Shown in pieces: positions 42,778 through 46,526 of a DNA stretch of 64,000 nt (positions are counted from its first letter, which is position 1; each line of letters begins with the position of its first letter). The notes below the pieces were generated by a model. The model made no database searches. It was not told the DNA's origin and was given only the letters and a program-made list of their open reading frames with translations. The position numbers and the translations under genes were made by a program. The stretch is from a virus. Location of the stretch: positions 11,523 through 75,522 of the IMG/VR virus record IMGVR_UViG_3300031251_000967. One strand, 5' to 3'.

Positions 42778-43608
42778 CTAGACACCGCAGAATCCTCCGC
42801 AAGCGTTGTTGAACATGCTGAGCTGGTCGCGCTTCAGGTGCGGCGGCTTGGGGACGAACTTCACTTCGCTCAACGGCTTGCGGCTTTCGTGCAGGTACGG
42901 CACGGCGCGGAACTCCGTCGATTGGGCGTATGCGGCTTGGAGTTCGAGTTCCTTGGCGGCGGCGTCGGCACGCTCGGCCGGCGTAAGCTCAAGCCACGCG
43001 TCGTCGTCCTTGAAGGGGCAGAAGGTGCAGGCAGATCGCGGCGGCTCCGGATAGCCCCGCTTCTGCATCCAGGCGAAGCAGTCGGCGCGCGTCATGTCCT
43101 GCTCGATCAGCGGCCACCGAGTTTCAATCCAGTCCTTCCTACTAGGAGCCATACGAGATGCTTCGTCGGTGCTGATGCCGATCCACATCTCGACAAGCGC
43201 ACCGTGCCTCTTCGTCACCCGCTTCATGCCAAGCAGTTCACGGCACTTGCGCGTGACTGGATCGATCTTAAAATCCTGCGTGCACTGGCGCTTGCCCAAG
43301 CCCTTCGCGAGGCCGTCAAGCGTATAAACGGGAATAGCTGTCTGGACGTATGTCCGTTGGCCGTCCCGTGTGCGTCGTACGCGCGTTGCCGACTGCCAGA
43401 GATTGCCGCGCGATACCCGATATACCGGGAACGAAAGGACGCTCTCCAGCCAATCCAGATGGCGATACACCTTCTCCGGCTCGCCCTCAGTGTCTGAGAA
43501 GATGGCGCAATCCGGTTTCGGCCCGACCTCGCCATGTTCGGCCATCAAAGCGAGCGTCGTGCTTTGCACGCCCGCCCCGAGCGATATCGCCCGCAGCCTG
43601 ACGCTCAT
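42778..43608 (-). CDS. PAPS-reductase-like (PP-loop) phage protein
   Basis: SLGAGVQST, IFSDTEGEP, RQCT, IGISTDE, RSACTFCPF, CGGFCGV. Confidence 0.8.
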   Translation of the reverse strand: MSVRLRAISLGAGVQSTTLALMAEHGEVGPKPDCAIFSDTEGEPEKVYRHLDWLESVLSFPVYRVSRGNLWQSATRVRRTRDGQRTYVQTAIPVYTLDGLAKGLGKRQCTQDFKIDPVTRKCRELLGMKRVTKRHGALVEMWIGISTDEASRMAPSRKDWIETRWPLIEQDMTRADCFAWMQKRGYPEPPRSACTFCPFKDDDAWLELTPAERADAAAKELELQAAYAQSTEFRAVPYLHESRKPLSEVKFVPKPPHLKRDQLSMFNNACGGFCGV

Positions 43609-43663
43609 GCCGTCCCCCGTCTTTTGCGATCGACGAGGACAAGGGTTTTCCTGGCAGGGGCCA

Positions 43664-45322
43664 TCAGAGCAAAGCCTCTTGCTGATCGCTGGAGAGCGAT
43701 TGGAACAGGGGGGAGTCGAGACCTTGCATGCGGTCGAGACGGCGCTTGATATCGGCTACGTACTCGGCTTCCCGCTCGATCAGGATCGCGTCGAAACCTT
43801 CCCGCATGCAGGCCGCGCCCGTGGTACCGGAGCCGGCGAAGGGATCAAGCACGGTGCCACCCGGCGGGGTGACGAGGCGCACGAGCCAGCGCATGAGCGC
43901 GATCGGCTTTACGGTCGGGTGCTTGCTGTCGCAGCGATCGTCGGCGTCGGCCTTGGCGGAGAAGAAGAAACGGGCGGCAGAGCCTGTTTCACTCTCAATG
44001 GCACCGATGGGCGATCCGGCCGCCGTACTGCCATAACCCGGCGCGCGCACCGTGCCGCCGCGGGTCCCGTGCGTCTGTCGCTCTCCGAACTGCGCGAAGG
44101 CTTCCAGCACCTCGTCAGAGCCGTCGTGGACGAGGTTAGCGGGCCAGCGGCCGAGCGCTTCGCCCGGTCGCTGCTCGGCAAAGCGTTCGGGAGTCGTGCG
44201 ATCGGTAATCGTGTGACCGTATTCACCGGGCGTGCCCGAAGGCGCGTAGCCGCGGCGTGCGACGCTCGGGTTCTCGCCCGCCACCCGGCACGCATCGACG
44301 TTCAACGCCCCGGTGCCGTGCAACAGCACGTTCGCAGCAACGGTGCCGTCGAGAGGCTTACGGGCAAGGACGATCGGCTCCCAGGCGGGCTTTAGGGCGG
44401 TTCCTATTCCGTCAGGAACAATCGGTTTGCCGCACCTTCCGCAATCCGGCCATGCTCCGCCATCTTGTGGCTCCGGTTGTCCGGCCACAGTTCCAGATTG
44501 CTCGGATCGTTGTTCAGCGGCTTGTGATCCCCGTGGTGAACCACTTCCACCCGCAGCAACGGACGGCCGATCCGCTTCGCCATTACTAACCGATGTTCCA
44601 TCACATAGCCGTCCGCACGCGCCATGCTGATGAACTCCGGCGGGCATCTGACATACCGAACCGAGACATAGTTTCCGTGTCTCTTCCGGTAGGTTACGCC
44701 GCCCTTCCAAGCCCAGTTGGCAGCACCCTTCGGCGGGGGCGGCGCATTGCAGTGCTTCAGCGGATGCGCCTTGTTCCGGCAGGCACGGGAACAATACCTG
44801 CCGCTGCCCGCTCGCAACTGATGAGGCCGCCGATACATCGGCGTCGTGCACAACACGCAAGTTGTATTCGGGCGACGGTTCGGGGTGCTCACAGTCGCAG
44901 ATTTTACCATCTAACGCCTTGTTTATGCTATGACTTTTCGGAAATCCGGCACCATAGCACCAAGCCAATTGGTCACGGATCTCGAAACCGGCATCCTCGA
45001 TAGCGCAGGCGAGCCGGTGATAGGTGCGCGTGCCGCTGAAGGCGATCAGATGCGCGCCCGGCTTCAAGACGCGGTAGACTTCACGCCACCAGTCAGGATC
45101 GAACGCGGTCTCCCCAGTGTCCCATTGCTGGCCCATGAATCCAGCCGATGCCCGCTTGTAGAGGCCGTCCCGGTCCTTGGCTGGCGCGCTGCCGGGCTTG
45201 CCGAAACGCTTCTGGATGCTGACGAGCGAGTACGGCGGATCTGTCACGCATGCGTCTATGCTGCCGTCTGCGAAAGTGCGCGCGACGTCGCGGCAATCGC
45301 CGTGCTCGACGCGAATGTTCAT
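43664..45322 (-). CDS. DNA methyltransferase, N6/N4 beta class, with about 170-aa insertion
   Basis: TDPPY, GFPKSH, GTALKPAWEPI, HPTVKP, LDPFAGSGTTG. Confidence 0.92.
   Translation of the reverse strand: MNIRVEHGDCRDVARTFADGSIDACVTDPPYSLVSIQKRFGKPGSAPAKDRDGLYKRASAGFMGQQWDTGETAFDPDWWREVYRVLKPGAHLIAFSGTRTYHRLACAIEDAGFEIRDQLAWCYGAGFPKSHSINKALDGKICDCEHPEPSPEYNLRVVHDADVSAASSVASGQRQVLFPCLPEQGASAEALQCAAPAEGCCQLGLEGRRNLPEETRKLCLGSVCQMPAGVHQHGACGRLCDGTSVSNGEADRPSVAAGGSGSPRGSQAAEQRSEQSGTVAGQPEPQDGGAWPDCGRCGKPIVPDGIGTALKPAWEPIVLARKPLDGTVAANVLLHGTGALNVDACRVAGENPSVARRGYAPSGTPGEYGHTITDRTTPERFAEQRPGEALGRWPANLVHDGSDEVLEAFAQFGERQTHGTRGGTVRAPGYGSTAAGSPIGAIESETGSAARFFFSAKADADDRCDSKHPTVKPIALMRWLVRLVTPPGGTVLDPFAGSGTTGAACMREGFDAILIEREAEYVADIKRRLDRMQGLDSPLFQSLSSDQQEALL
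44404..44910 (-). CDS. HNH endonuclease nested out of frame within the MTase
   Basis: CxxC..YCSRAC zinc finger, WKGG, YVMEHRLVM...EVVHHGDHKPLNNDPSNLELW. Confidence 0.85.
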   Translation of the reverse strand: MVKSATVSTPNRRPNTTCVLCTTPMYRRPHQLRAGSGRYCSRACRNKAHPLKHCNAPPPPKGAANWAWKGGVTYRKRHGNYVSVRYVRCPPEFISMARADGYVMEHRLVMAKRIGRPLLRVEVVHHGDHKPLNNDPSNLELWPDNRSHKMAEHGRIAEGAANRLFLTE

Positions 45323-45795
45323 GTGAGCACCTGCGGCCCTGACATACGGATCTCAAATCCGTAAATTGCTTCGACGACGGCGCGACGGAGACGAGACACT
45401 GAGTCGTCTATCCCCTTGTGCTCCTCGACCACGAACCGGCCGTTCTTTTCGCGGTAGGTGAAGTCGGCGGTGTAGACGGCCGTGCGACCGTTCGGATACC
45501 GCTCGGAGCGGATGACGACTTGGCGTTCGCCGATCTTCAGGACGAACCGGACTTGGCGGCTGAGGTGGGTGATCTGCCCTGCCCGCTCCATCAGCTTCAG
45601 TTCGCACCAGCGGTCGTACTCGGACTGGCTGTCGAAGCGCACGCCGTCCACGATGACGGGCTTGGCCTTCCACTTCGAGGGCAAGGGATCGCGCGCCGGC
45701 TTCTGTTGCGCGATCTGCTCCGCAAGCAGTTTGGCTGCTACCTGTTCGCGCGCGGCCGGGCCGAGGGAGAGGATGGAGAATGTGCGCTTCGACAC
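45319..45795 (-). CDS. DUF1064 family PD-(D/E)XK nuclease
   Basis: VDGVRFDSQSE, YTADFTY, VVEEHKG. Confidence 0.85.
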   Translation of the reverse strand: MSKRTFSILSLGPAAREQVAAKLLAEQIAQQKPARDPLPSKWKAKPVIVDGVRFDSQSEYDRWCELKLMERAGQITHLSRQVRFVLKIGERQVVIRSERYPNGRTAVYTADFTYREKNGRFVVEEHKGIDDSVSRLRRAVVEAIYGFEIRMSGPQVLT

Positions 45796-45806
45796 GATGG
45801 ATCGCC

Positions 45807-46046
45807 CTACTCCGCGGCCTCGCGCAGGGGCGCCCCGAAATACTGGCGGCGTCGGCGGGCTTTCTCTCGCCCGCCTTGGTGCGGCATGTATCTTGACGAA
45901 CCGCGTACCGCGCGAAGCTTGCGGTCGCATGTGCCTGGATGGACCAGCGTCGGCCGCAAGCGCCAGTTCTCCCTGATGATCGCGAAGGTGATGTGGCGAT
46001 TGGTGGTGGCGAAGCCGCGGGCGAAAGGATTGCTCTTCCGCATCAC
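45807..46046 (-). CDS. Hypothetical basic protein
   Basis: Coupled start; ends EAAE. Confidence 0.45.
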
Positions 46047-46348
46047 GCATCCTCCTGCTCATCGGAGGACAGATCCGGGATCATCCCCAGAGCCCGCTTG
46101 TAGACATCAAGAAGCGCTTCTTCTTCGTCGATTTCGTCGGGATCTTTGCCGCGAAGTGCTATAATGCGCTTCAGGATCTTGGTATCGAACCCGGAGCCTT
46201 TGGCCTCCGAGTAGACTTCCTTGATATCCTCGCTGAGCGCCTTCTTTTCCGCTTCAAGGCGTTCGATCCTCTCCACAAAGGAGCGGAGTTGATTTGCAGC
46301 GACGCCGTCCACGTCATTGCTCGGCAGGGAATCGCTTTGTTCGCTCAT
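46043..46348 (-). CDS. gapR: GapR/DUF2312 nucleoid-associated protein homologue
   Basis: [38 protein letters not shown]. Confidence 0.9.
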
Positions 46349-46526
46349 GGTAATGTGCTCCTGAAGGTAAGGTTCGGATCAGTTCTGTTCCTGCCGCCAC
46401 TCGCGGATGTGTTGGTGGCATTGGTCGGTGCAGTGGAAATACCGGGCCGCGTAGCCCATCAGAAAGCAGGCGAGACACGCACCAAACCACGCGAGGTATT
46501 CCATGCTGTCCTCCTGTAAGGGGCGA

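Follow-up and report, generated by a model that had tools for sequence, protein, structure and literature searches.

The 64,000-nucleotide (nt) stretch of viral DNA analysed here (the window) belongs to a provirus record of IMG/VR that is 75.5 kb long and derives from a rhizosphere metagenome. The minus strand of the window carries a DNA methyltransferase (MTase) gene inside which a putative HNH endonuclease is encoded in another reading frame. The MTase open reading frame (ORF; 43664..45322, minus strand) encodes 552 amino acids (aa) when read through the insert, and matches PF01555 (E value 3.6e-28) and phrog_67 (E 4.9e-72). Its type is that of the beta-class N6-adenine/N4-cytosine enzymes, with DPPY at residues 28–31 and DPFAGSGTTG at residues 493–502. 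D28, P29, P30 and Y31 of motif IV, as well as F495, G497 and G499 of motif I, which binds S-adenosylmethionine, form invariant alignment columns. In a predicted structure of the full 552-aa protein, the MTase core has a predicted local distance difference test (pLDDT) score above 90, and the fold of the model matches those of CcrM, M.RsrI and M.BceJIV with E values of 1e-8 to 1e-10, the best match being CcrM (6pbd, E 3.6e-10). Motif order and predicted fold thus assign the ORF to the PF01555 beta-class MTases.

The hidden ORF, 168 aa long and also on the minus strand (44404..44910), lies in the +1 frame relative to the MTase and extends from an ATG at 44908–44910 to a TAG at 44404–44406. Its ATG begins at the second base of the MTase codon for D138, so that position 1 of the HNH frame coincides with position 2 of the MTase frame; its TAG overlaps the codons for G305 and I306. 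The ORF occupies exactly the linker between GFPKSHSINKALD and GIGTALKPAWEP, two conserved blocks that we refer to by their motifs GFPKS and GTALKP. It is present as a single copy in the provirus record. Contigs from other rhizosphere samples cross both insert junctions with identical sequence, so the arrangement is not an assembly chimera; among the contigs of four DNA runs, where cover was low and patchy, no joint skipping the insert was seen.

Several lines of evidence place the hidden ORF among HNH nucleases. It matches ten PHROG HNH families, best phrog_20891 (‘HNH endonuclease’, E 1.2e-16), and reaches 23.6 bits (E 3.9e-5) against PF13392 HNH_3, just below the cut-off of 24.8. Across 57 HNH sequences, whose identity is 46–66%, the conserved motifs are W68-x-G70-G71, D100-G-Y, E105-H106, H125/H126, H129, N134, N138, N145 and H148. 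The predicted catalytic core (44467..44613, minus strand; D100...H106...H125/H126, H129, N134, N138, N145, H148) consists of positions that are invariant or nearly so. At the N terminus, a candidate FCS/MYM-like zinc finger (44779..44859, minus strand) is formed by C18, C21 and C40, which are invariant in the same set, and by C44, which is nearly so. Matches to known fingers are weak: a MYM zinc finger (E 0.022) was the sole match in a profile search of PDB sequences made with our first, three-sequence HNH alignment, and an FCS finger scored Z 2.2. The AlphaFold (AF2) model of the HNH protein has a mean pLDDT of 82, rising to 94–98 for residues 91–150. In a VIA-align comparison, the homing enzyme I-HmuI ranks first (Z 5.7, root-mean-square deviation 3.3 Å across 74 residues) and further HNH nucleases come next; a Foldseek search of the model against the PDB gave nothing significant, the best HNH row again being I-HmuI (E 1.8). 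Motif residues and the modelled beta-beta-alpha-metal core are those of an HNH, or His-Me finger, endonuclease. The HNH frame is under selection, as its zinc-finger and HNH residues are kept.

The MTase frame is nevertheless uninterrupted. Read in that frame, the insert (codons 139–304; 44411..44908, minus strand) specifies a ‘shadow’ peptide that no stop interrupts and that probably forms a loop, disordered according to prediction. The insert contains 0 stops where a mean of 6.4 is expected, and 0 of 2000 shuffles remained open; these permuted the synonymous codons of the window HNH while keeping its protein and its codon usage. The third frame has 9 stops. The mid-insert motifs of the MTase frame, LEGR and GRLxDG, are mere shadows of WKGG and DGYxxEH in the HNH frame. 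In the 552-aa model, shadow residues 151–289 have pLDDT values of 29–44 and no secondary structure. The insert stretches the distance between GFPKS and GTALKP to 176 aa, as compared with 7–73 aa in insert-less homologues.

To obtain a sample unbiased for the state of the host frame, we fetched relatives with the HNH as bait and so avoided ascertainment through a long ORF. This yielded 108 loci: genomes contributed 2, viral contigs 26, and the others are the 80 best among 507 confirmed stretches of metagenome (the scan of genome contigs, which gave the 2 loci, used a single HNH protein; the other collections were searched with an alignment query). At 98 of the 108 loci, the HNH lies in +1 inside a PF01555 MTase whose frame is stop-free over the insert. 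The 98 comprise 96 straightforward cases and two apparent exceptions, L060 and L082, that proved open across the insert on inspection; in L060, a frameshift lies about 100 nt upstream of the insert and the insert itself is open. Grouping the nested loci and the window at 90% nucleotide identity gives 77 clusters, whose guanine-plus-cytosine (GC) content is 37–69%. All 77 cluster representatives are open, with a median shuffle probability below 1/2000, where shuffles expect 1.4–13 stops and, for the low-GC clusters, 9–13. Free-standing relatives, found at 9 of the 108 loci, serve as a natural negative control and have 1–6 stops in the equivalent frame. One of them (L063:1101-1616) is an HNH of the same clade, 172 aa long and 56% identical, that sits between unrelated genes and has 4 such stops. 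The remaining locus (L021) carries an element in frame +2 of the type named the ‘ShiLan domain’, which was described in mycobacteriophage methylases by Gosselin et al. 2023 (PMC9957025). Arsenault, Gosselin & Gogarten 2025 (PMC11855218) showed that this domain conceals an HNH read out of frame, within an insertion that is free of stops and bears no feature of introns or inteins.

These data show that selection keeps the MTase frame stop-free over the insert, which supports dual coding. A chance opening caused by high GC at third codon positions is ruled out by the synonymous shuffles, the 9 stops of the third frame and the stop-bearing free-standing relatives. An earlier reading made from the letters of the window (the sequence-only reading) had raised that caveat itself, and it falls away. 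The same reading had described a 168-aa zinc-finger and HNH ORF on the same strand in another frame, filling exactly the variable region between the MTase blocks, with the MTase frame open throughout and giving a disordered-looking loop, and had proposed dual coding instead of splicing. The description is borne out by the coordinates, family matches, model and shuffles given above, and the proposal is supported; a broken MTase frame in HNH-bearing homologues, which that reading had named as a refuting result if usual, is not the usual state, 98 of 108 being open over the insert.

How the HNH may be expressed is suggested in part by its start region. The probable translation start (44908..44920, minus strand) consists of AAGG (44917–44920), a 6-nt spacer and the ATG. 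It coincides with an AT-richer patch at the 5′ junction (44850..44999; GC 0.51 versus 0.59–0.72 in flanking windows), which the sequence-only reading had rightly noticed. In 60 representatives, the start codon lies 1–67 nt after the GFPKS motif, often right behind a stop in the HNH frame. Internal initiation on the MTase mRNA is the simplest reading. Alternatively, the HNH could be made by a programmed +1 frameshift or by coupled re-initiation, possibly as a fusion to the N-terminal part of the MTase. The constant +1 offset across the family would suit a frameshift, and the window offers just a weak Shine–Dalgarno (SD) motif and, on the gene's strand, no internal promoter that we could find. 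However, both a TAA and a TAG stand in the HNH frame directly before the ATG of the window, the TAG immediately so, which excludes a fusion initiated upstream; many relatives likewise have an HNH-frame stop just before the start codon, and no slippery motif is conserved. We therefore consider this alternative unlikely.

The distribution of the insert points to a mobile element. On an MTase tree built with the insert columns removed (118 rows; 3 proteins without the anchor motifs were left out, and 5 inserts of intermediate length were not scored), the insert state requires at least 14 changes, 9 of which are forced by well-supported branches. Two pairs of nearly identical MTases, compared at the protein level, differ in the presence of the insert: the flanks of P0001 and P0064 are 95–98% identical, and those of P0006 and P0053 95–99%. 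Nearly all differences in both pairs lie within about 20 residues of the insertion site. In both, the filled alleles read IFYCYGSGFPKSHN (IFYCYG) where the empty ones have IGWCFG or IGWAYG, and ALEP or AVEP where the empty ones have AWEP. This site-clustered pattern fits the one expected of co-conversion during homing. The native linkers that were replaced are of unequal length (7 and 73 aa), so the cassette seems to recombine via the conserved flanking blocks. Among viral loci fetched with the C-terminal part of the window's MTase, 2 of 80 carry the insert (a single sequence); the nearest viral relative of this MTase, 80% identical in its N part and 62% in its C part, is without it. Identities of the HNH and MTase proteins are nearly uncorrelated (Spearman 0.16, 990 pairs), and in one pair of loci the HNH proteins are 81% identical and the MTases only 43%. 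The lineage includes contigs of metagenome-assembled genomes (MAGs) of Alphaproteobacteria and Deinococcota. The suggestion in the sequence-only reading that the HNH is a homing endonuclease is thereby supported: the patchy tree, the near-identical filled and empty pairs, their site-adjacent changes and the uncorrelated identities all point to homing-type mobility.

A functional partnership between the two proteins would offer another explanation, in which the HNH cuts DNA that lacks the methylation made by its host gene, so that the two form a restriction-modification-like or addiction module and cannot be separated. The HNH clade is indeed tightly tied to PF01555 MTases (98 of 108 loci), and this MTase family is the target of more than one kind of HNH gene, hidden or adjacent. 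On the other hand, the same clade occurs free-standing (L063), 78 of 80 close MTase relatives do without the HNH, and in its fold the HNH comes nearest to a homing enzyme. Patchiness, conversion tracts in the flanks and a decayed remnant (see below) make up the life cycle of a homing element. Such a module is, in our estimate, quite unlikely.

The open frame would be of no consequence if the insert were removed before translation. Phage homing HNH genes commonly reside in group I introns (PMC11855218), and an unrecognised self-splicing or host-dependent RNA element might take the insert out of the mRNA and leave the open frame unused. A scan of 43000–46500 with Rfam found no intron family, or any other, at E<=10, and a ribozyme core would find no space in the insert, all of which is taken up by the HNH ORF. 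Moreover, RNA removal would make selection against host-frame stops pointless, yet 77 of 77 clusters are stop-free where shuffles expect 1.4–13 stops, and cysteine codons are kept in the host frame within the insert. Splicing is unlikely for these reasons, and we give RNA removal very little chance; group I and group II introns as such were rejected because no covariance model matched at E<=10, the ORF fills the insert and host-frame stops are avoided.

The two ends of the insert carry a feature of the MTase frame itself. On the N side, the insert end reads ...ALDGKICDC..., giving a CDC pair (C142, C144; 44891..44899, minus strand). On the C side, a CGRC pair (C294, C297; 44432..44443, minus strand) is followed by GKPIVPDG, which abuts IGT at the 3′ end. 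The sequence-only reading had correctly noted that the loop is bounded by CDC and CGRC; the alignment of homologues with and without the insert that it had called for shows that the flanking cysteines, like the HNH residues, are conserved, and that they come with the insert. Of 61 anchored cluster representatives, 49 have a CxC or CxxC behind the GFPKS block and 46 have a CxxC ahead of GTALKP; both pairs are present in 45, neither in 11 and a single one in 5, counts that are not phylogenetically independent. The residues between the cysteines vary on both sides. Where the C-side pair occupies the same position as in the window, TGC and TGT are both in use, and it is at this pair that the constrained codon positions switch from the HNH frame to the MTase frame. 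In the 552-aa model, residues 291–300, which hold CGRC, have a pLDDT of 85 within a loop scoring 29–44. Among 41 homologues scored as insert-less, 40 have no cysteine pairs. P0116, which does have them, is a remnant allele with an 84-aa linker that keeps CLC, 3′ shadow sequence and CRRCGKPIIPDGL, most of the HNH being deleted; it looks like a decaying element. Since insert-less homologues are without the pairs and this remnant keeps both, the pairs travel with the element. They probably bind one zinc ion, tying the ends of the loop together so that the enzyme still folds.

Conserved cysteines near both insert ends might instead take part in the chemistry of a post-translational excision, atypically intein-like or protease-dependent, a proposal to which four viral contigs with the same HNH out of frame in a genuine intein of this MTase family (L016–L019) lend some colour; it is most improbable, because Pfam finds no intein or Hint domain in the window's MTase, the insert termini show no conserved Cys/Ser/Thr start and no terminal His-Asn, the shadow peptide is predicted to be unstructured rather than a Hint fold, and the cysteines are wholly absent in 11 of 61 lineages. 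An intein was rejected on the same grounds (Hint domain, terminal residues and loop prediction), in keeping with the sequence-only reading, which had seen neither intein ends nor an obvious intron. At L016:533-2700, L017:1708-3800, L018:1792-3344 and L019:1585-4360, an HNH of the same clade, 42–58% identical, lies out of frame inside the MTase intein, whose own frame is open. The intein begins after YG with CL(D/S)E(A/D)TE, continues through SRNHR and VWC(L/I)RVP(T/S)GAFVA(V/R)RNG, and ends in TGN before SGFPK. In these cases, the intein and its homing nuclease use different reading frames. The MTase at L019:1585-4360 contains yet another insertion free of stops, located after GWGTALKPALETVTFASKP at the ShiLan site; one gene thus combines an intein bearing a hidden HNH with a ShiLan-type insert.

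We consider it probable that the element is a mobile, homing-type HNH cassette that has settled in a prophage MTase of the beta class, within its variable linker, and is read straight through, and that it forms a sister lineage of the ‘hidden HNH’ of the ShiLan domain. The cassette sits between the GFPKS and GTALKP blocks, and its length and codon choice hold the MTase frame open. The MTase would most likely be translated through it, as suggested by the selection on its frame and by the model, with about 165 meaningless shadow residues forming a floppy surface loop. The cassette also brings, in the MTase frame, a CxC at its start and a CxxC at its end, and zinc probably ties the two loop ends. 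The HNH would probably be translated separately in the +1 frame, from the internal ATG with its weak SD motif. The nuclease would presumably cut insert-less alleles near the linker, and repair would then copy the cassette together with short flanking tracts.

Several observations weigh against this account of the locus. An SD-like motif is found in just 23 of 60 relatives, folding at the HNH start is not measurably weaker than in shuffled sequence (z −0.34), and neither an internal promoter nor a terminator was found on the gene's strand. A look for RNA runs containing this stretch found none, and read-through, internal initiation and the absence of splicing are all things that we infer. The MTase tree cannot tell gain of the insert from its loss, and an insert-less allele of the window prophage's own MTase was not found among the contigs of the DNA runs or the viral loci. 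Of 61 lineages, 11 have no clasp; most of these are of low GC, and they evidently manage without it.

A bolder idea, which we put forward tentatively and regard as somewhat less likely to be right than wrong, is that the cassette represents a third route, besides introns and inteins, by which a homing nuclease can live in a conserved gene. A host-frame Cys4 zinc clasp, pinning the nonsense loop at both ends of the element, would act as a ‘structural splice’ for which neither RNA nor protein splicing is needed. The intein-borne copies at L016–L019 would then form an evolutionary bridge between intein-borne and splice-free forms.

The genes around the MTase are those of a phage replication and modification module. 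Its neighbours encode a primosomal-like DUF1376 protein, a small helix-turn-helix regulator and phosphoadenosine phosphosulfate (PAPS)-reductase-like, DUF1064/resolvase-like and DUF2312-like proteins. The DUF1064/resolvase-like gene (45319-46062, minus strand) lies directly upstream, and its 4-nt overlap (ATGA) with the MTase start suggests translational coupling. Downstream of the MTase follows the PAPS-reductase-like gene (42778-43608, minus strand), which matches phrog_424 and has no Pfam match.

Other members of the MTase family host further insertions. At L082:231-2485, an MTase with an open-frame hidden +1 HNH is split downstream by a different, free-standing zinc-finger/HNH gene (1372-1956), and the C-terminal part of the MTase resumes in another frame. 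At L160:1475-3307, the GFPKS–GTALKP linker holds a different nuclease-like ORF (1720-2400); the MTase is split into two ORFs, with 4 host-frame stops, a ‘split gene’ solution at the very site where the window uses dual coding. The 681-aa MTase at L184:1193-3238 is open across an 819-nt insertion after ...EPIVLARKPL. Within this insertion, an ORF of 174 aa (1942-2466) lies out of frame; it has CxxC pairs and a DH...CWNCN motif and is apparently an HNH of another family. Six insert-less relatives (L137, L145, L151, L157, L163 and L187) have open linkers of about 370–400 nt between the N and C parts of the MTase, with no match to the window HNH. Finally, at L021:370-2457, an IMG/VR contig, a ShiLan-type hidden HNH in +2 with a second, C-terminal zinc finger follows ...KPSHEEILYARKP, and the MTase frame is open over 696 aa. 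This suggests that the published ShiLan element is not confined to cultured actinophages.

The significance of these findings extends beyond the window. The ‘hidden HNH’ became known in 2025 from a few mycobacteriophages, yet the family is large and old: at least 507 metagenome stretches matched, and it spans 37–69% GC and several bacterial phyla. Selection on the host frame, for which the published work offered no statistical proof, is here demonstrated statistically. The long MTase ORF is all that gene callers annotate, so that nested nucleases are invisible in databases, and MTase entries hold about 170 residues of ‘shadow’ sequence that is not protein in origin. The cysteine clasp suggests a simple rule by which a protein might tolerate a large nonsense insertion, which may serve protein engineering. 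The MTase linker itself is a hot spot for comparing selfish elements, as it offers a hidden HNH, a split gene, an intein and the ShiLan site.

Among known systems, inteins and group I introns resemble the cassette in that a nuclease rides at a conserved site of a conserved gene without killing it. They differ in their splicing apparatus, which the window element is without; here, harm is avoided by frame-compatible coding and by what appears to be a structural clasp. The free-standing homing endonuclease mobE splits its host gene, nrdA of Aeromonas phage Aeh1. The window element shares with this type an HNH gene that lies within a conserved phage gene, has neither intron nor intein and spreads by homing, and split cases occur in the same MTase family (L160, L082). 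In mobE-type insertions, however, the host is cut into two ORFs whose products reassemble as subunits, whereas the host ORF of the window is continuous. Another parallel is the insertion in Pacc40 gp60, where an out-of-frame nuclease-like ORF likewise occupies a stop-free insertion of a phage methylase (PMC11855218). In that case, however, the host belongs to a helicase-methylase fusion family, the site is another one, and the hidden product is an AP2/HNH-like protein of uncertain assignment; this protein gave no match to the window HNH in a search of phage sequences.

The closest likeness is to ShiLan gp65. Here too, a PF01555-type phage methylase contains an in-frame, stop-free insertion, an alternative frame of which encodes an entire zinc-finger/HNH protein, there is no intron or intein signature, the distribution is patchy and homing-like, and the shadow peptide is a predicted loop. 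The two hosts belong to the same MTase family (gp65 aligns with the window MTase, E 4e-24). The two nucleases are distant homologues of different clades: the ShiLan HNH is 33% identical to that of the window (E 1e-6), and its relatives reach up to 36% (E 3e-9; 76% of the query). The ShiLan protein has 195 aa and a second, C-terminal zinc finger, and the window protein has 168 aa and is without one. The ShiLan insert follows GWGTALKPSYEPVCVAVKP, past the TALKPxxEP...KP block and downstream of GTALKP, and its HNH is in +2, whereas the window insert lies before GTALKP, in the GFPKS–GTALKP linker, and its HNH is in +1. The ShiLan shadow peptide is without flanking CxC/CxxC pairs, whereas the window insert has both. 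For ShiLan, read-through combined with leaderless initiation was proposed (PMC11855218). Neither PMC9957025 nor PMC11855218 mentions a host-frame cysteine or zinc, and the three insertion sites that they map do not include the GFPKS–GTALKP linker. The published ShiLan-type cases are from actinophages, whereas the window lineage spans GC 37–69% and includes the Alphaproteobacteria and Deinococcota MAG contigs. In its insertion, open frame, complete HNH ORF, patchy distribution and freedom from detectable intron or intein machinery, the window element is of the kind described in PMC11855218; given its other site and other frame, it is not a ShiLan domain proper. The principle of the hidden HNH was thus known, and the novelty lies in a distinct lineage that occupies a fourth site, has a clasp and is distributed far more widely than the actinophages.

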